From: Chrysochromulina tobinii
Taxonomy: Eukaryota
Assembly (NCBI GenBank): GCA_001275005.1
Contig: JWZX01003049.1
Span: 1-32,025 of the forward strand
DNA length: 32,025 nt
Direction: 5' to 3'
The translations under genes and the position numbers were made by a program. Positions 1,334 through 26,400 of this stretch are shown piece after piece. Below the pieces are notes generated by a model. It was given only the letters and a program-made list of their open reading frames with translations, did not search any database and had not been told where the DNA came from. Numbering within the stretch: the stretch's first letter is position 1; every line of letters begins with the position of its first letter.

Positions 1334-1534
1334 TCGCCGCCGCCAGCCCGCTCCAGCGTGACCCTGTGCAGTTCTAAACCATGGCGCGGAGCCACTCCGC
1401 GGAATTCTGGATCGGGTTGTGAATTCTCGAAATAGCTGTGTGAAGACTTTACTGTAACCATTGGCTGTGAATACCTGTACATGTGCGGAAGACCTCTCGC
1501 TCAACCCTCGATCGCACGTTCACGGGATCATCGA

Positions 1535-4500
1535 TCATGGAGCATGCACATCGCTCGGCTTCCGGCCCTTGCTCTCCGTCGTCGCCACCGTGCCCTCCTC
1601 ATTGCTTTCTCGCGCCTCGCGCAGCTGATCGCGCAGCCTCACGCGCTCCCAGTCGTTGGTCGATAGGATGGTCGACCCGTCCCCACTCCGCATGTGGTAC
1701 AGCCCACGGACGACTTCGTCAGCCTCGACGAGCCGCTTGATCTCGAGGCGCACGCAGCGGGAGAGGCTCACCTGCTCGCGCTTGAGCTCCTCCACGCGTG
1801 AGCGACTGTACAGCAGGCGCGCGAGCATGGGGCGCAGGTCTCGTAGGGCGATCATGCCCGACTCGACCGAGATGACTCCTATGTACCTGATGAGGGAGTC
1901 AATCAGGTGTCATCAGAGGTCGTCAATCTACTGTCGTAGGTCACGAAGAGGTCATCAAAAGGTCATCAAGAGCCCCTCATGGTTCATCCGTGGCTATAAT
2001 GTACGAGGCGAGAGGCGCGATCATGAGCAGCGTGATCACGTCGTGCGCCGACATCGAGGTGCACGCCAGCAGGAGCGCTGCATAAGAGAGCCAAACCTGA
2101 GGGACGGAGGCAATTAGATGTGTCATCAGAGGTCATCAAGAGGCACTCATGGTTCATCCGCCTAGGAGCACCATACAAGGGGCACCGCGACCTGATGAGG
2201 GAGGCAATCAGAGGCCATCAGAGGCCATCAGAGTCAATCAGAGGAGCGCCATACAAGGGGCACCGCGACCACCGCAAACTTGAGCTTCTCGGAGAGGAGC
2301 ACGTCGTGCCCCGTCCGTTTGACCGTTGAGGAGGCCAGAGCCACCCGCTGCCGCCATCTGGAGCACGCGAGGGCGGCGAGACGGATGCACTCAGAGGCAC
2401 TCAGAGGCACTCAGAGCCTATCAGAGCCAATCAGAGCCAATCAGAGCCACTCGGAACCAATCAGAGCCAATCAGAGTTCATCAGAGCCAATCAGAGCCCA
2501 TCAGAGCCAATCAGAGCCAATCAGAGCCCATCAGAGCCCATCAGAGCTCTTCAGAGCCAATCAGAGCCCATCAGAGCCCATAACAGTTCATCAGAGCCAA
2601 TCTCACTTTGACCACGCGAGGGCGGCGAGGCCCACGGGCGCGTTGAGGATGATCGAGGGCACCGACGCGATCATGAGCATCACGAACATGTGTCCTATGG
2701 TGAAGAGCGTCGCACCCACCGGAGCACGCTCGAGCGTTGGCACCTGCGAGTCACGCAGCCCGAGCCGCCGCAGCTCCTGGTCGTACCTGAGGAGGGAGGC
2801 AATTAGGTGTCATCAGAGGTCATTAAGAGGCAATCAGCTCCTGGTCGTACCGGCGCAGCCTTTGCATGAGCTCGGCCAGCTCGCGCTGACGAAGCAGCGC
2901 CTTGAGCTCGCGCAGCTCGGTCGCCACGTCACTCGCCTCGCTCGAGCCGCCGTCGCCCACGGCGGCGGCAGCGACGCCGTGGGCAGCCGGAGCGCCGCCG
3001 CTGTTGCCGCCGTTGCCGCCGCCGTTGCCGCCGCCGTTGCCGCCGTTGCCGCCGCCGTTGCCGCCGCCGTTGCCGCCGTTGCCGCCGCCGTTGCCGCCGT
3101 CGAGTTGTCGGAGGAGTCGTCGGATGCCGAAGGCAAAGCGGCGGTCAAGGTCCTGGCGCACGGCCGATTCAAGCTTGCCCGACATGCCCGGACCGCACCA
3201 GAGCCGGCGTACCACGTGGACCAGCTGCAGCTCCTCAAAGGACGAGACGGGCACGATCACGTCCCGCATGGCTCGCTCGATGCGGGCGAGCAGCGCCGTG
3301 CATGCGCGCTGCCGACGCTCGCCACCATGCGCGTGCTCCGCCTTCTCGGCCTTGGAGGCCAGGATGGGCGGCCCCACATGCACAGTCACCTTGGCGGAAC
3401 GGAACACATGCCCGCGGAAGTAGGACAGCCCGACGGGTACGATGGGCACCTGAAGCTGCGCACTGAGGGCGAGGAGCGCCACGCCCGGCTTGAGCTCCAG
3501 CAGGTCGGTGCGGTCGTGCGAGCCGCCCTCTGGGAAGATGCCTAGGCACGCGCCCCTGTCGAGCGCCTTGACCACGTCGGGAAACACCTTGTCATAGTCG
3601 CCACGGGGCAGCACGCGGTATGCGCCGCTTGCGGGCAGCGTCCAGCCAGCGTCGCCGCACGCGTGTTCATGGCGTGTGCCCAAGGCACCGTGTTGCTCAA
3701 CAAGACGCTCATATGGAGGCAAGACGGGCGAAGATGTAGGCAAACTGGCCAAGGGCGCCGGAGGCAAGACGGGCGACGCGGTTGGCGAGCTGGCGCAGGG
3801 TGGCTGCGCGAGGCGCACAAAGCATACTGCGTTGCTCTCGATCGCCGTCACGCGCCAGACCCAAGTGAGCGTCGGCCTGCGCCCGTCGACGAAACTCAGC
3901 TTGTCCCCACACCCAAGCTCCGTGCAGAAGCGGCAAGCCTCGCTGCCAACGAGCCGATAGAGATCCGCACGTGGCTCCTCGGGCTGCCCGTCAGCGGCGG
4001 CATCGCCGCCTGTGGTGCGGCCGCCCTCAGTGGGCTCGGTGGTCTCGCGCGAGGTGGCGGCGGCGGGCTCGGCGCGCAGCTGCAGCAAGGCGCCCGAACC
4101 TGCGAAGGCAACATCTTGCGGGCGCGTGACCGGCACAGCCGCCATCGCTCGCGCAAAAAAGCCGATGATCGGGTGTGTGTACGACTTGCGTGCGATGAGG
4201 AAGCTGATGCGCCGCTGCGGGCACGCACACATGACGCACATGCCGTCGATGAACTGGTTGAAATGATTGGCGACCAGGATGGCTGGCCCGTGCTGCGGGA
4301 TGTTCTCCATGCCGATGACATCGATGCGGCTGATGAAGATGGAGAGCATCGAGTTGAAGAACACACGGCCGGAGTAGAAGACGAGGCTCTGGAGGTCTTG
4401 TAGCACGGCCAACACGAGAAAACAAACAAAGGCCCATCCGAATGCCACGCGGCCCCACTCGGCCAAGCCCGCAAGCGTGCACAAGCGCTTCACCGGGTTG

Positions 4501-4778
4501 AGCGTGTCGAACGAGAGCATGATGAGCACGACGAGGATGAAGAGGTGCATCGTAGTACTCGTCGTTGAGCCGAGCACCTGGCTGCTTGGACGAGGGCGCG
4601 GAAAGGTGAGCTCGTCCTCCTCCTCCTCCTCTGGAACTTTCGGCTCAGCCATTCCAGGCACCTCCACCGGCTCCGGAATATTCGGCTCAGCCGTTCCAGG
4701 CACCTCCACTGGCGGCAGGCTTAACGAAGGTTTGTGCGGTGGCTTTGGCTCGCTCCTTGGCGGGCCAGCCCAGTCCAT
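1535..4778 (-). CDS. Glycerol-3-phosphate/DHAP O-acyltransferase, fungal Gpt2/Sct1 type; exons 4778-2851, 2786-2607, 2357-2270, 2191-2177, 2096-2005, 1886-1535 (884 aa)
   Basis: PlsC motifs ANHFNQFIDG (HX5D), VTRPQD, GIFPEGGSHD, IVPVGLSY. Removing five GT-AG introns gives one frame: ...RRYDQELRRLGLRDSQV...LNAPVGLAALAWSKWRQRVALASS...HDVLLSEKLKFAVVAVPLVWLSY...SYIGVISVESGMIALRDLRP. Exon lengths sum to 2655 nt. Confidence 0.9.
1887..2004 (-). mobile_element. Introner-like intron A (118 nt) in acyltransferase
   Basis: Sense: GTACAT...TGATGACC-type repeats...TGATTGACTCCCTCATCAG; next exon also begins GTACAT; removal restores frame (A-S-Y-I-G). Confidence 0.8.
2097..2176 (-). mobile_element. Introner-like intron B (80 nt)
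   Basis: Sense: GTATGG...TAATTGCCTCCGTCCCTCAG; next exon begins GTTTGG; removal gives P-L-V-W-L-S-Y and removes an in-frame TAG. Confidence 0.8.
2192..2269 (-). mobile_element. Introner-like intron C (78 nt) with 29-nt target duplication
   Basis: Direct repeat 2164-2192 / 2242-2270 (1 mismatch); CTGATTGACT/CTGATGGCCT units; ends TGATTGCCTCCCTCATCAG. Confidence 0.8.
2358..2606 (-). mobile_element. Intron D (249 nt): about 22 copies of a 10-nt repeat (sense TGATTGGCTC-like); acceptor region duplicated from the upstream exon
   Basis: Donor AA|GTGAGA, acceptor CTCCAG|ATGG; 17-nt direct repeat 2364-2380 / 2613-2629, offset 249 = intron length; (tcagagccaa)n array at about 2388-2600. Confidence 0.85.
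2787..2850 (-). mobile_element. Introner-like intron E (64 nt) with 17-nt perfect target duplication
   Basis: cagctcctggtcgtacc at 2771-2787 and 2835-2851; sense ends TAATTGCCTCCCTCCTCAG; the unspliced ORF stops inside it (TAA 2823-2825). Confidence 0.88.
2995..3099 (-). repeat. Coding minisatellite encoding a Gly/Asn tract (GGN/GGGN)n
   Basis: Alternating gccgccgtt and gccgccgccgtt units, in frame in the acyltransferase. Confidence 0.9.
4639..4709 (-). repeat. 42-nt-period coding duplication (PVEVPGxAEP x2)
   Basis: ttcggctcagcc[a/g]ttccaggcacctccac at 4639 and 4681. Confidence 0.85.
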
Positions 4779-5008: not shown

Positions 5009-7318
5009 ATGCTCATGACAGACTACCAGCAGCCCACGGGCAGGCTCAACCTAAGATTCGCGGACAAGGTCGCCGACGGCCACCACCAATGGCGCAGCCA
5101 GTCGCAGCCAAATGTTCACCTCAAGGAGCGCTGTGGGGGCGGCGACCTGAACAGCCGAAGTGGCTGCGGCATGTGGAAGCCCAAGGGCGCGCCGTGCCCG
5201 CATTGCCAGCGTACCGCCAAGCAGTTCGGCCTCATTGACACGCAGCAGTCGACGCTGACGCCTATGGCAAAGCTGAGCGCAAGGCTCGGCAAACCCGTCC
5301 ACCTCACGATGCCGAGTGGAGCGCTCATGAAGAGCTCCTCGGTGTTCGCGCTGAGGACGACTGAGGAGCTTCTCAGCGGACGCCGGTACGACAGCACCAC
5401 GGCGCACCTGAGCCACGAGGAGCCGCCGACGCGACGCCCCTCGTCGGCCCAGTCGCTCGCGCCCGGCGGCAACAGTACAGGCCGCCGAAGCCCAGCCGAA
5501 GCTTCAGCGGTGTCGATCTCACCATCGTCTCGATCCGCGCCGATCTTCGAGGACGAGGCGAAGGAGATGAAGACCCTCGCCACCGCCTTGCGAGAGGCGG
5601 CCATGTGTCGCACGGAGTGTGCGCACGCCCTCGACCACCTCGCCTCCGACTTTGAGCGCGAGTTCCGCCCGGGCATTCCATCGCGCCCCGCAGCGAGCTC
5701 TCTCGTCGTCAAGAGTAGCACGATCGCCTCGCGCCTGTCGACGGCGTGCTTCAGCCTCGAGGCGGCCGCGGCGACGTGCCTGCAGATCTCGCGCATCGGC
5801 GCCATCGAGCGCGAGTCGATGATCGACGCGCTGCAGGACGACGCCATCCAATTCGATCATAGGATCGACGAGGCGAAGGCGGCGATGCGTCGCGTCGAGA
5901 TGAGCAAGCTGGACGAGCGCGCGGTGTACGACAAGCAGGCGCGCGCCACGGCGCACGCGATGGCCATCGAGCTCGCGCGCGCAGAGCACAAGATTGACAC
6001 ACTGCGCGCCGAGCTGAGCGCAAGCCGGATCCTCATGGGCAGCGCGCTCGAAGAGGAGCGCGCCAAGGTGGTCGCGCATCTGCGCGCGCAAGCGATCAAG
6101 AGGATGCTCAAGATCGAGCTGGCGCGTAGTTGGACGTCGTGGATGGACACGTACAAGCGAGGCCGGAGGCTCAAACGGCGTGCGCTGCTGCGATTTCGTC
6201 AGGGCGAGCTCAACAAGGCACTGAGCACCTGGGCTCAGGTACGTCCGCCCCCCTTTAGCCCTATACCGCCCCCCGAGAGCCCCCCGATGAGCCCTGAGGA
6301 CCTCGTTGATGACCCTTGATGACACCATCGGTGCCCCTCCGCACGGCCCAGGTACACCCCCCGATGAGCCGCATACGGCGCGCGATCGAGCCATACAAGC
6401 AGCAGATCGCCGACCTGGAGCGCGACCTACGCAAGGAGAAGGCTGCGCATGAGATGACGCGCACGATGCTCGAGGCGCGCGCGTTGACCACGGAGGAGGA
6501 GATGCATCGGCGGCGTGAGGCTGAGAAGCACCATCGCATGCAGCACCTGCTGCAGGTAGCGGTGCGCCGGACGCTCAAGATGGACCTCGCTCGCGGTTGG
6601 ACTCAGTGGCACGACGTGACCAAGCATACCAAGATCAATCGCATGCGCGCGCTCGCCCGCTTCCGCTCGCAGGGGCTGTTCAAGGCGCTGCGCACGTGGC
6701 GCCTCGTGTGCCCGCCGCGACACCTGACGCCCGAGAGCCTGATCATCTGCCAGGAGGCGCTCGAGCGCGAGCGCGCTGCGCACGCCAAGTGCCGCGCGCA
6801 GCTGGTCAAGCTGCGCGAAAAGTGGGAGACGAAGTTCGAAAAGTATCGCGAGGCCGTGCAGACGGCGGCGACGCTCCAGTCTGTGGTGCGTGAGCTGCAG
6901 GCGGTGCTCAAGGAGGCCCTCGACGCCTCCTCGTGGTCTTCCTGCCGGATGGTCCTCTACCACGAGCACCTGCGCTACGTCCCCTCGGCCGCGACGCATG
7001 GGCGCGGCGGCAGGTGGCGTGCAGGCCTCGCGCGCAAGAAAAGGGCGAGATTGATTACGAGATTGATTGCATGCTGTTTGCATGCTGTTTGCATGCTGAT
7101 TGCATGCTGATGGCCTCCTCATCAGGTGGCGTGCAGCCTCGCGCAAGAAGGGCGAGATAGACTCGCGCCTCTCCAACGGCTGGTCCGTCGGGCGCCTCGT
7201 CGACGGCTCCCATCTCGAAAAGGTGCTCACGTGGCCAAGCTCCTTGCGCGACACGCCGTTCGTGCGGAGCGAAGACCTGGTGCCATTCCCCCTGGAGCAC
7301 GAGCGCGCGATGGAGTGA
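5009..7318 (+). CDS. Coiled-coil protein with Trp-containing Sfi1-like repeats; exons 5009-6238, 6352-7013, 7126-7318
   Basis: ORFs 4889, 6316 and 7100 join in frame through GT-AG introns. Duplicated module AIKRMLKIELARSWTSW...LNKALSTW / AVRRTLKMDLARGWTQW...LFKALRTW. Start codon uncertain. Confidence 0.65.
6239..6351 (+). other. Intron F (113 nt), probably an eroded member of the duplication-intron family
   Basis: CAG|GTACGT...CCCAG|GTACAC; ccccccgatgagcc occurs in the intron (6280-6293) and next exon (6357-6370); degenerate TGATGACC units. Confidence 0.75.
7014..7125 (+). mobile_element. Introner-like intron G (112 nt) with stuttered 33/38-nt duplication
   Basis: Intron 7014-7051 copies exon 7126-7158 with +G, +CG, +AA; (ttgcatgctg)-type repeats; ends TGATGGCCTCCTCATCAG. 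Confidence 0.88.
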
Positions 7319-7449: not shown

Positions 7450-10370
7450 CAGACCCAAGCTAGGTAATTACCTCCACCGTAGCTCTAGCTGGAGCCACGA
7501 ACATTAAGCTGCCAGGCCAAATGACATTGCTTGCCACTGAGCTCCTCCTAACCACCAGCTCAGTTGGAAAAGCAGAAGCATCAGCTTGCATGGTTACGTC
7601 GTGCTCCTACGGCCTCTCTTACCTCTCCGCTTCAACCAACAGTCGGTGCAGTTCCTTTGCCACTTTACGCTCTGCTACCGCGTACCATCTTCATCAGACG
7701 CCCTGGCGAGTGCTCTGCGAGAAGGCGGAAGCAACTTTCGACCGCCTGCTTCTGGTCATCTGGTGCGTGGTGGACAAAACCGAGCTTGTGATTCGCATCC
7801 TCAAGAAGTTTGAGCCTGATGATTCGCTCATCCACACGTTCGTGAAGAACAGCTCAAGAACAGCTCGAAGATCGTGAAGAACAGCGGCGAGCTACTCTTC
7901 GAACTGCCGCGATACGACTTATGCTTCGAGCTCTCCAGTGACAACCAACAGCTGTGGTCGAAGAACTTAATTGGCTTCTCCCTCACAGCAAGACTCAGCA
8001 GCTCAAGACGCTCCACGGCTTCTAGCAGTATCTCGTACTTGAGTCGGGCAAGCAGAAGATCCTCATTGTTCCGCGGGGCGACGTGGTGAGAGAAGGTGAG
8101 CGGGTCTTCATCGACGGATCGAGCGCGTGCGACGCCAAGCGTGAAGTCACTGAAGTGCATAGGTATGACGTGCACGAGCGTTTCAAGAGTCTCGAGTCGC
8201 CAGCTGGTCTACAGCTGGTCGGCACTCGGTACTAGCGCGCCTGCTGCTGGCCGCGCTTTCTGCTGCTACTGGCACGGTCGACCATATGCAGGCTCACAGC
8301 AGACCGGCGGAGAGCCGGAGAGTCGGCTATCGAGCTAGTGCGCCAGTGCTGGGTGAATCGTCCGCTCGATTGCGAAGAGAGCAAGCACAGCTCCAGTCCG
8401 TCTCCAACTTTAGCCAGCTCGTGCCCGCCCTTCCTTTGATCTGCCACGAGTTGTACATGAGCGCGCGTGAGATGAGTTTTCTACACGCCCCAGATGCTGA
8501 TCCCCCAGAGAAGCTGGCATTCAACGCGGACGGCGGACCCCGCGACGGAGTATACACACAGCGGAAGCAGGCTATGCAACTCAACGCGCACGAGATGTTG
8601 CGCCCTGACGAGGAAACGCGCTCGCTCGCGCACTTGGTGAGACCGCGCTCGCTAAAGAACCTCGAGCGCAATCTTGACGTCCTGCCTCCGAGTCGGAGGA
8701 GGCCACAGCAAGGTGATCCAAGAGACCGAGGAGACTTTGAAGGCGATGATCACGGAGTCGTCTACGGACTCTTGACCCATCGCTGCCTTTCCCCCTAGTT
8801 GATGTCGCAGACTTTGAAAGCACACAGCCCGGCAAGCACATGTTCACGGAGCTCCGCGATAGCTGGGGGGCGCACCAAAAGATGCTCTCAATCCAGCTTG
8901 CAGCGAAGCACACCATCCTGGCGGATCTCAAGAGACAGCGAGAGACGATTAGCGTCGTCTCGTGCATTCGGGTGCAATGTCCTGCCAACTTCAACATGCG
9001 CCGTGCCGCAAACCGTGTCCGGAATGCAAACCTGGTCCCGCACGTGACACTTCGTGACCTCGCCCGAGTATCGCCCGAGCAGCGCTCCACTCAGCCGAGC
9101 TGCTGCGCTTCAACCCGTTCCTCTCGGTATAGGGGCAGAAGCACAGTAAGGCACAGCTGCACGAGTGGGTGCTTGACTGGCTCAAGTACTGCGTGCTCGA
9201 AGACCAACTAGAGCGCATGCATTCGAGCGCCTTGGCAGCGGCCTCTGCCTCCGCCGCTGCCGCCTTCCAGGAGCTCAAGCGTGAGCTCGAAGAGATCGGG
9301 CGCGAATGGGAGGTGCATGTACACCCGGAGTGAGGAGTGGCTGGTCTTCAAAGTTGAGCAGTAGCTCAAGATCCGGCGGGTGCAGTACATGACAAGGGCA
9401 ATCCCTGTGCCGCTACTCAGCTCAGCATGGGCGAGGGCAAGACGCGCGTCATCCTCCCGATGCTTCAGCTGCACCTGCGCGGCCGGGCAAACTCGTGAGG
9501 ATGCACTTCCTCACTATTCCTCACAAAGCTCCTCGTCGAGGCTTACTTCTTCCTCCACCGTGGACACCTCACCGCCAGCCTGATGAATCGGCGGCTGTGC
9601 CTGCTGCCCTTCCACCGCAAGGTGAAGCTCACGATCAATGACGTGCTACGGATGTACCAAGGGCTGCTGCGCTGCGAGCGAAACGGCGGCGCTGTTTTCT
9701 TCACATCAGAGCACCGTCTTTCACTGCAGCTCAAGGGCCACGAGCTGCGCCTCTCTGAGAAGGGCAGCGGGGCTAATGCGGACAGCTTTGAGCGGATCCG
9801 CGCCAAGCTTGACCAGCTGCACAGCCTGCCGTACCACGATGTGAGAGCGACGAGGAGCTACGCCACCACACAGTTCCAGCTAATCTACGCATGGGGTAAG
9901 CTGCAAGCCTTTGCCGGCGGGGTCCGAGCGATGGATCGCAGCAGAGGCGCTCCTACGCGAAATCCAGCACAATCCTGAGGCGACGATAATCCTCGCCACG
10001 CCCGACGTCTCGAAGCGGCAGAAGCGGCAGCTAAGCGGCAGCCACTCTTCTGGCGCTTGGCCCGCAGGCGCAGGAGGCTGAGTACACGCTGTGGCTGTCC
10101 TCCGCTTCGCAGATGATTAACGATGAGCAGAGGCAGGCGCTCGACTCGGTTGACAAGCTCGATCTGACGAGCGAGCCGCAGCAGCTAGACATGCTCTTTA
10201 CCCTGTGCAAGTACAATATGGCTGCGGTCAACTTCTGGCTCAATAGCTGTGTGCTTCCGCGTGAAACAATGCAGTTCCCCAACCGCCTGTGGCCAACGCG
10301 TTCAACTTGACTGACAATCCCTCAGGCGAGGTGATCGGCTTCTCGGGCACCAAGGACAACAATCCTCGAG
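7450..10370 (+). pseudogene. Heavily disrupted DUF3638/DUF3645-family giant P-loop protein fragment
   Basis: Collinear motifs across shifting frames: EWLVFKVEQ*LKIRRVQY (about 9335-9388), QLSMGEGKTRVILPML (about 9418-9465), LLPFHRKVKL, EHRLSLQLK, ESDEEL...QLIYAWG, VNFWLNSCVLPRETMQFP, IGFSGTKDN (about 10334-10360). Multiple stops and frameshifts; boundaries approximate. Confidence 0.78.
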
Positions 10371-10455
10371 CGAACAGCTGTGTGTCTCAGACCAGCACGA
10401 TCGAGGGGAGGGTGGGTCGGAGGGTGGGAGGCAGCGTGTGAGACATATGGGCTAG

Positions 10456-13074: not shown

Positions 13075-15324
13075 TTACGTAAAGTCGAATTTGACCTGCA
13101 GCACATAGCGCTGGCGCACCTGGCTCGTGTCGTACACGATGAACTCGTTGTACAGTAGCGAGGTCGGCTGGTCGCCGAGCACGGTGTTCTTGGCGCCCTT
13201 GCCGAGCGGTACCTTGACGTGAGGCTCGCCGGGGAGCGTCGTATCTTCAGACGGATCGGGCGCCGTGCGGCCCTGGCCCCAGGTCGAGTCTGCCTTGGCC
13301 TTGCGGCACGACTTCTCGGCCTCGTACTCGGCGGCTGTGCGTACGTATTGTTGGCCAAGCGCCACCTCGGAGAGAAGCATCACGGCCGCCGGCTCCTGGC
13401 GCGAGGCGAAGCAGTAGTTGGCGCTCTTGCTCGACATGTCGGCGAAGTAGACGCCCTTGCCGAACATGTAGCCCGTCGACGGCGCCTCGGGCGGCGCGAT
13501 GCGCAGGCCCTGTGAGATGATGCCACACCAGTTCGTCAGGCGCGAGCCGTGCCAAAGCAGCTGCCGGTTTCCGATGGCGGAGGTGAACCTGGCGGCCTCG
13601 CCCTCTCGCTCAATCTCGAAGGCTTGCTCGAGCACGAGCGAGTACGTGTTGTGCGTGCTCGCGTGCGTGTTCTGAAGGTACCGGTTGAGGAGCGCGTGCA
13701 GCGGCGAGCCCTTGTCGATGGGCGTGAGCTGCGCCTTGAGCTGCGCGTAACGCGCGTCGACTGGGTGCACGTCGCAGCCGAGGCCCTTGGTGTCGATGAC
13801 GCGTGAGGCGAGCTCGATCTCACCGAGGGCCTCGAGCATGTCGATCTTGTCCTTGAGCATCTGCGCCGTCTCGATTGGAGGCAGCCGTTGGCGCTTCTCG
13901 GTCGTGTGCGGGATCACGCTGTAGAAGCGGTTGGAGAGCTCGACGATCTGCTTGTACGCGGGCGAGGAGGCATCGACGTCGACGGCGCCCATGCTCTTGC
14001 CCTCGAGCTGCTTGCCCGAGGCACCGCCCGCGACGGCGCCGCCATTCGAACGGATGACCTCCCCAAGCTCCCGGAGTGCCTCGTACCCGTCCAGGATGGT
14101 CTTCTTCTTGAGCTTACCCAGAGGCATCTTGGCCGGGTCGAAGCCGATCTCGCGCATCGTGCGCTCCATCATGCGGATGTCGGCGATCTGAGCGACAAAG
14201 CTCTGCACGCGCGGGTCGAGTTTCGACTCGACGGGCTTTGGCGGCGCCAACGCCGGCGCGTCCGTGGACGCCGCCGCAGAGGTCTTCGCCGCGTCCTCGG
14301 CGCCGTCCTCGGTGCCGTAGTCGCGCTCGATGAGGGTGTACTTGCCGGCGACCGGCTCGAAGTCGTGGCGCTCCTGCCACTTGTTCTTCGTCTTGTCGTG
14401 GAACTTAGACTCGAAGTCTTTCTTCGCTGGGCCGAGGCCCATCGGGCCGCGGCACGCGTTCTGGAGATTGCGTTCCTCACCCACACGGCCCCAGCGGTTC
14501 CACGTGTAGTACTGGGGCGGCGTCGCGTCCGTCTCGAGCAGCTGGATGATGTAGTATTTGTTCTTGTTCTGCCCAATGTCCGTCTGGTTGAGCAGCGCGT
14601 CGAACACGTTCTTGCCGTCGTCGTACACATGGCATGCGTTTGCATGCGGGCAAGAGGCGTCGACCGCCGCGCGCCCTTTGACGACCTCGGTGCGCACGCC
14701 GTCGGAGGACCCGCCGCCCGTGCTCGTGTATCGCACCTGGCTCACGCCACCCGCCTTGACCGACTTGGCGCCGACGACCGCGCTGCCGCCCGTGGCCATG
14801 GCCGGTGGCGGCGGTGCGAGTGCCTTTGCAGTCGGTGCGGCGGTGGCGCCCATGCTTTTGGTCCCGCCGCCCGGGAGGTGAGCGGGCTTGGGCGGTGGCT
14901 GTGCCGGTGGATCACCGTTGGCCATGCGGCACACCGGCCGCTGCAGCTTGGCGTTGTCGAGTCGATACTGGAAGAAGTGGAGCACGGACGAGCTTGCGGG
15001 ACCGGAGCCACTCAGGTCGACGCGGTGGTAGTCGCTAATCTTCTCCTCCTTGGCACCCGCTTTCAAGGCCGCCTCGAGAGCGGCAGTGACATCCGGGGGG
15101 TATGGCGTCCACTCGCGCTCAGTTGGGCTCTTGTCGCTCGCCCAGAACCAGGCCGCGGCGCCCACCTTCACTTTCTTGGATTCCTGATCATCATCAGCGT
15201 CAAGGTCGATCGGTTTTCGCTTCTTGTTCGCCTCTGCGAGACGCGCGACGAGGTCCGCCTTGAGTCCTGAGGTGTCCTCGCCAATCGCGGCGAGTTCGGC
15301 GCGCAGCTCTGCCACAGTCGGCAT
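13075..15324 (-). CDS. PARP: Poly(ADP-ribose) polymerase, PARP2-like: SAP-WWE-WGR-regulatory-catalytic (749 aa)
   Basis: SAP TVAELRAEL...GLKADLVARL; WGR LNQTDIGQNKNKYYIIQLL...RWGRVG; regulatory KMPLGKL...LSNRFYSVIPH; catalytic LLWHGS, GYMFGKGVYFAD, LLYNEFIVY (H-Y-E triad). Confidence 0.95.
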   Translation of the reverse strand: MPTVAELRAELAAIGEDTSGLKADLVARLAEANKKRKPIDLDADDDQESKKVKVGAAAWFWASDKSPTEREWTPYPPDVTAALEAALKAGAKEEKISDYHRVDLSGSGPASSSVLHFFQYRLDNAKLQRPVCRMANGDPPAQPPPKPAHLPGGGTKSMGATAAPTAKALAPPPPAMATGGSAVVGAKSVKAGGVSQVRYTSTGGGSSDGVRTEVVKGRAAVDASCPHANACHVYDDGKNVFDALLNQTDIGQNKNKYYIIQLLETDATPPQYYTWNRWGRVGEERNLQNACRGPMGLGPAKKDFESKFHDKTKNKWQERHDFEPVAGKYTLIERDYGTEDGAEDAAKTSAAASTDAPALAPPKPVESKLDPRVQSFVAQIADIRMMERTMREIGFDPAKMPLGKLKKKTILDGYEALRELGEVIRSNGGAVAGGASGKQLEGKSMGAVDVDASSPAYKQIVELSNRFYSVIPHTTEKRQRLPPIETAQMLKDKIDMLEALGEIELASRVIDTKGLGCDVHPVDARYAQLKAQLTPIDKGSPLHALLNRYLQNTHASTHNTYSLVLEQAFEIEREGEAARFTSAIGNRQLLWHGSRLTNWCGIISQGLRIAPPEAPSTGYMFGKGVYFADMSSKSANYCFASRQEPAAVMLLSEVALGQQYVRTAAEYEAEKSCRKAKADSTWGQGRTAPDPSEDTTLPGEPHVKVPLGKGAKNTVLGDQPTSLLYNEFIVYDTSQVRQRYVLQVKFDFT

Positions 15325-23418: not shown

Positions 23419-26400
23419 TCAGATGAGCTTCGCCTCGGCGGCGCTGAGCTTCGCCTGCAGCTCTTCCTTTTCGTTGACGAGCTGTAGGATCTGCTCCGAT
23501 TGCGCCTGCAGCATCATGCGCATTTGCCCCTCATCCTCCGCGTCGATGGTGCCCGGCCCCCGCCCGAGCACGCGCCCCCCGGTGGCGGAACGCACCCATG
23601 GCGCCGCGTCGCGGACTCCATGGCGTGTTTCGCGCGCCTTGGCAAGCTTCACCTCCAGAGCCGTCATCTTCTCAAGCTCGGCGACCCGCTGGACCTTCGC
23701 CTTGCGCTGCAGCCGTTGCTGCTCCGCGAGCTCGTGCCCCAAGGCCACCTTCTCGGCGAGCGCCTGCGCCGCCTCCATCTTGGCACGGCGGAGCTCCGCC
23801 GTGAGCGCCTCCACCTGATGAGGGAGGCCATCAGCATGCACTCAGAGACGCACTCGGACGCAATCAGGCGGAGCGCCGCCGTGAGCGCGGCCGTGAGCGC
23901 CTCCACCCGCGCCAATGCGTGGAGGGTCGAGCGCAGAGGATCCGCGGAGAGGCGATCAGCCGCCACGCCGCTGCCGCCCACCGCTGCGCCGACACCCTGG
24001 GCGCCGCTGCCCTCGGCACGAGCGGACTTGGCGCGAAAGGCAGCGGCGTCGGACTTGAGCTGCTCGATCTCGTCTTGCAGCGCGTCGCGCTGCTGACGGC
24101 AGCGCACAAAATCCGCTTTGGCGCTCAGCAGTGCCATCTCCGCATCCTGCTCGGCGTCTGAACCGTGCGTGGACCCTGGCTTCGCCCAACTCAGCGCGCT
24201 CGCCACGGCGCTACCGTGCGTGGACCCTGGCTTCGCCCAACTCAGCGCGCTCGCCACGGCGCTGGCGGCACTCGCCTCGCCGACGTCAGCGCCGCTCCCC
24301 GGCGCGCGGTCCGCCCAATACGGCGCGCGGTCTGCCTGCAGCCGCCCAGCTGGGATGCGTGCCGCCTCGGCCGCCTCGACCGCCACCATCGCCTCCGCCT
24401 CGGTCAGCTTCCGATGCGCCATCGCCACCTCGCGTTCAGTGGGCCGACCGAACAGTTGGCTCAGGGCGTAGATGCCGCCGGCGCCCGTGCCGGCGCTGAT
24501 GGCCACCGGCACGCGCACGGACGCCGCGCCGCCCGCTGCGCTGCCCTCCGCGCCGTGGTGGGCACTTGCATGCGCGCCCCCCGCCGCCTTACTGGCTGCG
24601 CCGTCCGCCACGCCGCCCGCCGCGCCGCCCGCCTCGCCGCCGTCCGATACGTCCACGGGGTGCGCTGAGACGGGGGCGGCACCCAGTACAGCGCGGTAGG
24701 CGTGCGCGGCCACCTGCGGTGCACCGCTCTTGAGGTACATGTTCGCTGTGGAAAGGAGGAGGGAGACGCGAGGATGCACCATGAAGGCGGCCTCGTACGC
24801 GCCACGTGCGCGCGCTGCATCGCCCACCTCGTTCGCCGCTTTCCCCTCGGCGATCAGCTGATCAGCGAGCTGAGAGGCCGCGCTGCCCCCAATCCCGCCT
24901 CCCCGCCCGTCAACGCCGCCGTCGCGGGCCGCAAGTTGGGCAAGCCTTGCGTGCGCTGCCGCGTGCTCGAGAAGGGATTGGACCCGTGATTGCCCATGCT
25001 CGGCCGTCGCCGCCGCGCGGCTGGCCAACTCATATGCACAGCGCTCGAGGTAGAGGCTCGCCCGTGCGGACGCTTCCTGCTCGGCCGCCACGAGCGTCGC
25101 CAGCTGACCGCGCTGCAGTTGCATGCGGTCAGCTAGCGCCGCATGCTCCGCCGTGAGCCGACCGAGCTCGGCGCGCGCCGTGCTGAGCGCCTGCTCGGCA
25201 CGTTCTCGCGCCGCGAGCTCCTCCTCGCGCCTGGCGATCGCCGCGGCGGCCATCTCCTGCGCCGGCTTGATGGCGGTCTCCGCACGGCTCTGCGCCGCGA
25301 TGGCTGCGGCGAGGTCTGTCTTCTCATCAGCGTTGGCCGTAGCCGAGGCCGCGGCCGAGGCCTCGAGGCAGCTGAGCGCCTCACGGGTCGCCTCGAGCGC
25401 GTCCTTAGCCTGCTCGGCCTCACGCATCGCCCTCGCCACCGCCGCGCGCGCCGCCGCAGCTTCGGCGAGAGCCGCGGCTGCCTCCGCCTCGGCGCTGGCC
25501 GTGTGCTTTGCCTTGAGCTCCGCCTCGAGCTCAAGCAGACCGAGCTCGGCAATGCAAGCTCTCCTCTCGTACTCGAGACGGTCGGCGCGCCTCGAGGCTT
25601 CGAAGTTCGCCTCCTGCATGCTCGCGAGCTGCTTCTCGAGCACCACGGTTCGCGCCTCCGCCGCCACCAGCGCCGTCGCCGTCGCGGCCGCCTCCATTTT
25701 AGGATCGATTCCTTTTTTAGGCTCGCTTCCCTTTTTAGGATCGCTTCCACCGAGCGTCTCCGTCCCCGCACGTCCGTAGTAGCTTTGCGAGTTCCCTGGC
25801 GTGTACTTATACACTGTCTTGCCTTCCTCCGTCTCCTCTTTGAGCTTGCCTTCGGCGAGGAGCTGCTCGAGCAACTTATGCCGAGCCAGCTGCCCCCCGG
25901 TACGTGAACTCGTTCTTCAGCTCGAGGTGCCTGGGCATCAGAGCACCGAGCACGCGCCCGGCGCCGCGCTTGCCACGCTGCTGCTCCTCGATCATCGCCT
26001 CGAGCTCCTCCTCCGTGTCCAAGTCGCGGTCGTCCTCCACGTCCGACGCCGCGTCCGACTCGCCCGACTCGCCTCCGGCCGCTTGATGTGAGGCCGCTTG
26101 ATGTGCCACTCGGCCTGCGCCACCGCCGCCGCGCCGGCCGGCGCTGGCTCGCGGGAAACTCTCGCCCGCCTCCGACCCGACGTCGGACAAGTCGGCGTCG
26201 GTGTCGTCGTCGGCCGTGGGCCAACCTGACGACTCCGCCTCTGACCCGATGGACGACAAGCTGTCGCTCCGACCCGAGTCGCTGCCCGAGTCGCTCGATG
26301 CGAGCGGCTTGCCGCTGGAGCCGTGCTTGTCGTAGTTGCGCAGCCAGCGCGAAGAGAGCGTGAGCACGAGGTCGCCCACGGGCACGCCGTCGTGCAGGAG

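Follow-up and report, generated by a model that had tools for sequence, protein, structure and literature searches.

A compound intron probably built by two successive insertions of one short intron-making family in Chrysochromulina tobinii

The acyltransferase gene and the repeat family in its introns

The window, by which we mean the whole analysed stretch of 32,025 nt, comes from the freshwater alga Chrysochromulina tobinii and carries on its minus strand a gene for glycerol-3-phosphate O-acyltransferase, a lipid enzyme. The product matches Pfam PF01553, and the protein cluster closest to it includes the C. tobinii protein KOO24828.1. It is 809 amino acids long when counted from the methionine at 4550, with a further 76 back to the start of the open reading frame at 4778. 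The stretch is present in six RNA and ten DNA sequencing runs, five and three of which, respectively, were compared as assembled contigs rather than reads. In four RNA runs, contigs confirm the removal of intron A and of a block composed of B and C in every run, of intron D in two and of intron E in three (Table 1). The NCBI model KOO24828.1 has 570 amino acids against the approximately 885 indicated by RNA, ends near intron E in a different frame and omits the C-terminal membrane region supported by RNA (window 1535-2850, minus strand); stacked sites of the family described below break gene models. A Gly/Asn repeat tract in the acyltransferase (window 2993-3100, minus strand) differs in length among cluster members. 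In addition, a metagenome scan returned four loci: L001, nearly identical to the window; L002, a second allele (91-97%) that carries both B and C; L003, a distant orthologue with no introns at the B and C sites, which is 72% identical and may be a transcript; and L004, an mRNA-like spliced contig.

Table 1. Positions of the acyltransferase gene, the parts of the B and C block and the other family sites in the window
Feature	Position	Strand	Description and basis
Glycerol-3-phosphate O-acyltransferase gene	1535..4778	-	~885 aa once spliced; PF01553; KOO24828.1 cluster; metagenome contig L004
Intron A	1887..2004	-	118-nt skip in 4/4 RNA runs; same family as B/C; short diverged duplication
Exon copy after B (V-W-L-S-Y)	2081..2096	-	Ancestral state of the bases duplicated by B; homologues, L003
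Compound intron B+C	2097..2254	-	158 nt, GT..AG; likely spliced unit; skip seen in RNA, probable route
Element B body	2097..2160	-	64 nt, same family; 5' motif in common with intron A, 3' end with E; provides the acceptor used
Donor of intron B plus its diverged copy of exon 2096-2081	2161..2176	-	Sequence comparison
Downstream copy of C's duplication (original site)	2164..2192	-	Repeat match; CpG decay differs between window and L002
Candidate 15-nt microexon (VAVPL)	2177..2191	-	From sequence; likely a skipped pseudo-exon
Element C body	2192..2241	-	50 nt made of five 10-nt units, with a CTGAT resembling a branch point, a pyrimidine run and CAG; numerous similar copies in the genome
Upstream copy of C's duplication	2242..2270	-	15 nt exon (2269-2255) + donor 2254 + 13 nt; weak alternative donor 2269
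Intron D	2358..2606	-	249-nt skip in 2/4 RNA runs; same 10-nt units as C; reversed layout
Intron E	2787..2850	-	64-nt skip in 3/4 RNA runs; same family; perfect 16-nt duplication
Site F	6239-6351	+	Reading frame; diverged family intron, consensus-like donor, internal 14-nt copy of downstream exon
Site G	7014-7125	+	Reading frame; duplication with slippage-like insertions
Site H	23906-23815	-	Reading frame; duplication with slippage-like insertions
Tandem I1/I2	29582-29442	-	Two near-identical 50-nt bodies, three copies of a 21-nt target, no exon between (AG|GT)

The introns of this gene belong to a repeat family with eight sites and ten bodies in the window (A, B/C, D, E, F, G, H and the tandem I1/I2). 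All eight sites lie in coding exons in the sense orientation, while about two-thirds of the window is coding and about a third is not. The bodies repeat a unit of 10-11 nt, contain a CTGAT resembling a branch point and end in a pyrimidine run and CAG; five of the eight measured (C, E, H, I1 and I2) are 50-53 nt long. Their ends are weakly inverted, with 4-7 of 8 end bases matching (five of them contiguous in C), for body starts chosen by eye. Exact duplications of the target, counted from the GT and laid out as at C, span 16 nt at E, 11 at G, 17 at H and 21 at I; across the family sites they range from 2 to 21 nt and reach 28-38 nt if mismatches or slippage are allowed. The slippage-like insertions in the duplications of 7014-7125 (plus strand) and 23815-23906 (minus strand) include a 12-nt re-copy, suggesting error-prone or iterative fill-in.

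These elements share several properties with the Introners, families of similar introns found in unrelated genes: the ten bodies align although they come from four genes; the elements are spliced out with the protein unchanged, as RNA contigs, L004 and homologues indicate; and at E, where the 64-nt skip falls within the 16-nt duplication, a splice site is taken from the duplicated target. Removing F and G opens a frame of 721 amino acids, removing H one of 728 and removing both I units one of 928; the last, encoding a condensin subunit (Cnd2), opens only if I1 and I2 are both removed. Beyond the window, 20-28 contigs in each RNA run carry the end of C, up to 2190, joined to foreign flanks, and 582-823 contigs per DNA run match the stretch, mostly at the C body. 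Several contigs read body, short spacer, body, so stacking recurs in the genome; within the window it is seen at two of the eight sites. The element patterns found no loci in viral contigs. Three pattern matches in prokaryote genomes (none in another scan) had neither repeat units nor a flanking duplication, were at chance level and were set aside.

Other observations concern individual elements and the rest of the window. Intron D has its donor at the start of a 21-unit array, the unit number of which differs in allele L002, and its acceptor within a changed copy of the exon upstream. A, B and E (1887-2004, 2097-2160 and 2787-2835, minus strand) share motifs not seen in other window elements, including a 31-nt stretch 94% identical between A and B, and local templating among these three within one gene is possible. 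The region 7600-10400 (plus strand) resembles decayed coding sequence, with many breaks, no family elements and no long open reading frame; 13075-15324 (minus strand) holds a PARP gene that has no introns and encodes SAP, WWE, WGR, regulatory and catalytic domains; and 24162-24263 is a perfect 51-nt tandem duplication in a coding region, with no element between the copies.

The 29-nt duplication and splicing of the B and C block

The block at B and C is organised around a direct repeat, 2164-2192 and 2242-2270, whose coordinates in the sequence-only reading were right: 28 of 29 positions are identical (the single mismatch is 2170/2248), similarity ends on both sides, and 30 shuffles of the window gave no comparable repeat with a spacing of 40-300 nt. 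Read on the minus strand, both copies are made up of a shared G, then 15 exonic nt (VAVPL), then 13 nt beginning GTATGG. That reading had described the copies as 15 nt of exon plus about 13 nt of intron B; the layout holds, but the 13 nt derive from B's exon duplication and not from the B body. Over its first 13-19 nt, B is similar to the exon downstream of it; these bases represent B's own diverged duplication, with identities of 10/13 for copy 1 (P ~0.002 given GT), 14/19 in allele L002 and 12/16 for the inferred original. C's duplication includes 13 bases of B's duplication and no sequence specific to the B body. Searches for other features here were negative: the pre-mRNA surrounding the site has no folding advantage over its shuffles (z 0.89), which lends no support to structural looping-out, and Rfam gave zero matches over 1500-3000.

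The repeat creates three GT..AG candidates, 2269-2192 (78 nt), 2176-2097 (80 nt) and 2254-2097 (158 nt). As had been pointed out from the sequence, the first two together and the third by itself leave identical mRNA and hence the same protein. Pairing donor 2254 with acceptor 2192 would add five amino acids, pairing donor 2269 with acceptor 2097 would remove five, and all four combinations are in frame. Four of five RNA runs contain the 158-nt skip with a single VAVPL in the mature form, which is also the form of L004, and the fifth, thinly covered, shows unspliced sequence only.

We consider it likely that B and C are removed together as a single 158-nt intron rather than separately around a microexon, since donor 2269 is weak and B and C are retained together. 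The 5' splice consensus and branch-point motif used for scoring are the general ones. Donor 2269 matches the consensus at one of seven positions beyond the GT, making it the weakest of ten genomic donors scored in the window and the only one with a pyrimidine at +3. At 2254 and at 2176, three of seven positions match and the context is the same, so one of the pair is used under either model. In all five RNA runs, the contig that retains B extends into the C body. In simulations, contigs were expected to break at 2191-2192 or 2204 if splicing intermediates had been kept, and a majority of molecules with C spliced would break or divert at 2191-2192. The simulations also predicted a break at 2253; unspliced 2220-2252 must exist yet is uncovered, and the depth of the bin 2246-2294 equals that of the mature contig alone. 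RNA contigs thus drop real minor paths, so that missing splicing intermediates are weak evidence, and the unspliced contigs may stem from DNA or from nascent RNA. At B/C, contig depths in four RNA runs were 22.7, 9.05, 6.9 and 15.6 for the unspliced form against 60.1, 9.78, 14.6 and 19.7 for the mature form, suggesting more unspliced signal than at A; contig depth is a poor measure, and we did not count it as evidence.

The same insertion history could instead have left C and B as separately spliced introns around a true 15-nt microexon, as the sequence-only reading had it, and although we think this unlikely it has real arguments on its side. Acceptor 2192 and donor 2176 look competent by sequence; C carries a branch-point-like motif, a pyrimidine run and CAG, as do the RNA-confirmed introns A and E; C's duplication begins at G|GT; and microexons between very short introns can be included, according to the available part of a published study (PMC8378409). 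Against this, donor 2269 would have to outcompete a competent donor 15 nt downstream, use of which leaves an intron of 63 nt, a plausible length given that E is spliced at 64 nt. Such competition predicts the isoform with five additional amino acids, which the sequence-only reading had offered as a check; neither this junction nor the one lacking five amino acids is among the joints listed (15 of 17, in RNA contigs). That B and C are kept together in every one of the five RNA runs argues in the same direction. A plain tandem duplication of the 15-nt exon plus intron B, or recursive splicing through the AG|GT at 2192/2191, is very improbable: the layout is formally two such units, but similarity stops sharply after 29 nt, the C body is a different, widespread sub-type, the loose contig ends already point to copies of it at many unrelated sites, and the regenerated donor (one of seven) would lose to 2176, giving the unseen form with five additional amino acids.

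Order of the insertions and source of the duplicated bases

The relative age of B and C can be approached through the bases that the duplications share. Both intronic copies differ from the exon copy at the same three positions, +3, +8 and +12. In 10 readable homologues, drawn from 120 protein matches and the cluster members, the affected codon specifies leucine seven times and methionine, valine and phenylalanine once each, never the arginine, cysteine or histidine of the intron copies. One of the shared substitutions is thereby polarised as derived, by the homologues and by L003, and the other two are synonymous and unpolarised. If B was first, these three changes need to have happened once; if C was first, the same changes happened twice or a conversion took place. 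The two duplications also differ in state: B's is about 75% identical and far more diverged than C's, while one CpG in copy 2 has decayed by opposite changes in L002 and in the window, so that C's two copies were once identical, a perfect duplication. The homologues have no extra residues at the insertion site. From the shared substitutions and the state of the two duplications we judge that B very probably entered before C, in agreement with what had been proposed from the sequence.

No allele lacking either element was seen directly, both being present in three of three DNA runs and two of two close genomic loci. In one DNA run (X2), a 53-nt variant contig ends at 2192 and another ends at 2271, a combination matching only the simulated model that includes a molecule without C. 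We regard this as only a hint, as recombination or PCR switching between the repeats yields the same molecule.

An improbable alternative is that a single compound event, prone to error, produced both B and C, or that C came first with later homogenisation. The duplication would then have been copied from exon, and would give no argument against an mRNA template. In keeping with this, the duplicated 13 nt are exon-derived without B-body sequence, and the slippage-like insertions at G and H indicate that copying can be error-prone. Both copies would nonetheless need the same three changes, one of them swapping a conserved leucine for arginine; the B and C bodies are different sub-types; and the divergence of B's duplication far exceeds that of C's.

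With B before C, the sequence-only conclusion that the copied template was genomic DNA or unspliced RNA, and not mature mRNA, is supported, with the qualification that it hangs on three bases. Because the 13 "intronic" bases are exon-derived, both the copying of intronic sequence and the order of events depend on the three shared substitutions. A genomic or unspliced template is, moreover, expected of any target-site duplication made by a staggered cut, and the same reasoning has been published, in the available text on nested introners of Micromonas, where it led to the view that mobility acts before splicing (PMC3879977). Stacked sites of this kind put the events in sequence and link the duplication with the chromosome and not with mRNA.

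Taken together, the 29-nt repeat, the family membership of both bodies and the mature mRNA, all observed directly, fit a history that we hold to be somewhat more likely than not: a compound intron made by two successive insertions of one short intron-making family, B and then C, and spliced as 158 nt. For B, the target would have been a G-rich exon with a DNA break of wide stagger; filling in this break would have duplicated about 16 nt, with the GT among them becoming the donor. The intronic copy of B's duplication would then have drifted, including a T to A change at +3 that made a better donor. A second staggered break may then have let C in; its overhang of 28-29 nt would have reached into the drifted donor of B from a point 15 nt within the exon. 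Fill-in at this second insertion would have copied the chromosome as it then stood; a staggered break and fill-in would make the duplication blind to exon-intron boundaries. The upstream copy would thus hold a second functional donor of B (2254); splicing from it to the acceptor of B (2097) would leave out C's acceptor and the 15-nt piece in most cases. As the offset is 15 nt, every donor-acceptor combination is in frame, which would have let the allele survive. What speaks against this history is that C keeps an intact-looking acceptor and that its duplication starts at G|GT, the latter most easily explained by past or present use of its own donor.

Insertion machinery and comparison with known systems

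How new introns arise is an open question, and for this family several candidate engines were weighed. Six of the eight family sites have a G before the GT, while GT occupies 4% and G|GT about 1% of coding positions. The variable junction shows weak microhomology (five sites, Fisher p 0.018; C alone, p 0.10; H none), with none at two of the five sites. No transposase family was recognised in the 10 window open reading frames scanned.

Our tentative choice, for which the odds fall somewhat short of even, is a DNA-level integrase acting on a non-autonomous element of about 50 nt with the ends CTGAT..ATCAG. A possible but rather unlikely engine is RNA-templated: the 3' end of an excised intron would be joined to DNA at G|GT and the other strand nicked downstream, with fill-in, reverse copying and end-joining to follow. 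The exclusively sense and exonic placement of the sites in a window about a third non-coding, the prevalence of G before GT, the constant 3' end and the weak microhomology at the variable junction are all in its favour, and linear group II introns perform half reverse splicing, a staggered nick and end-joining in the published account available (PMC3280974). That same account has the group II system losing the overhang and making no duplication (PMC3280974), and in C. tobinii the bodies start in phase and mostly measure 50-53 nt, unlike random truncation, intron D is without the constant 3' end and any enzyme for this route is hypothetical.

A Replitron-like HUH transposase is a doubtful third option. 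According to the accessible part of the source, insertions of Replitron-1 have a fixed orientation, a dinucleotide target and duplications of variable length, and C. tobinii yielded one Replitron-like locus (10.1101/2022.12.15.520654); tandem units as at 29582-29442 would suit rolling-circle copying; the same text describes other Replitron families as lacking duplications and having an RG target (10.1101/2022.12.15.520654). The combination of fixed orientation, GT dinucleotide and variable duplication fits the Replitron pattern, and selection for splicing explains it equally well.

At stacked sites, the choice of target can be told apart from selection for splicing that acted afterwards. Should donor 2269 not be used, splicing selection does not explain why C starts at G|GT, and the target preference would be intrinsic, suggesting insertion machinery that prefers splice-like sites; if donor 2269 is used, the microexon is real, and one site proves neither case. 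A speculative extension, to which we give little credence, is that C never needed its own donor and that its G|GT start reflects the insertion machinery's own choice of sites: the spliceosome itself would join the 3' end of an excised intron to DNA at sense-strand sites resembling splice junctions, a nick in the other strand tens of bases downstream then being filled in and the intron copied in. Were this true, spliceosome-guided intron transposition would have left the long variable duplications of this family as its mark, and its target preference could be read from stacked sites free of selection.

Among described systems, the Introners of Symbiodinium and of Polarella (classes 4/5 and 6/8/10) come close, being multi-copy short introns with an acceptor in the element, a donor from duplicated host bases and unchanged mRNA, as the available parts of two sources describe them (PMC9860276; 10.1101/2020.10.14.339549). 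Introner target duplications are given there as 3-9 bp and fixed per class (PMC9860276; 10.1101/2020.10.14.339549), whereas those of C. tobinii are several times longer, approximately 16-38 nt, variable and sometimes slipped, and its bodies are arrays of 10-nt units with inverted ends of 4-7 nt. A 2025 survey, in its accessible portion, scores C. tobinii as having zero Introner families (PMC12130899), and the available text of another paper names the species solely in its genome list (PMC9860276). Our literature search, with limited coverage of subscription journals, found no paper describing this family. Within the genus, Introner family 5 of a marine Chrysochromulina sp. MAG is alike in lacking a clear terminal inverted repeat and in sharing the splice-site logic of intron D, and differs in its 4-nt duplication and in an element that carries the donor; this comparison is by description, not by sequence, and follows the part of the source at hand (PMC9860276 Fig. 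2C).

A cut-and-paste (DDE, MITE-type) Introner would have a short duplication of fixed length (3-9 nt), which the duplications of 16, 21 and 28 nt and the longer slipped copies seen here do not fit, and a terminal inverted repeat of at least 6 nt, to be compared with the 4-7 of 8 matching end bases given above. Target-primed reverse transcription by non-LTR elements yields variable-length duplications, 5' truncation at random points and a 3' tail of poly(A) or simple repeats. The variable duplication fits non-LTR retro-insertion; the truncation and tail do not, the bodies starting in phase with a unit, having a largely uniform length and ending in CAG. Stwintrons and introns with recursive (RS) exons also have a complex intervening sequence with internal splice sites, including AG|GT, a short exon and a second donor. 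C, however, interrupts no splice signal of B, so an ordered two-step removal is unneeded, and RS sites are described, in the sources available, in long introns; identity with a stwintron was rejected, as B's donor is intact in both copies.

New introns of Daphnia pulex attributed to staggered breaks resemble ours in having a direct repeat of adjacent exon at the far end of the intron and repeated hits in young introns (PMC4202315, as far as its available text goes). The repeats there are 4-12 nt with filler mostly of unknown source (PMC4202315), whereas those of C. tobinii are longer and their family is recognisable. In Micromonas, nested or merged introner elements lie inside or merge with another element and are confined to the sense strand of genes; the part available does not describe host sequence duplicated over a long stretch (PMC3879977), whereas here the second duplication copies the donor of the first intron and leaves a 15-nt pseudo-exon. 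Nesting as such, to which this is a published parallel, is an expected by-product, and the stronger story is a family of approximately 50-nt elements with long and variable duplications.
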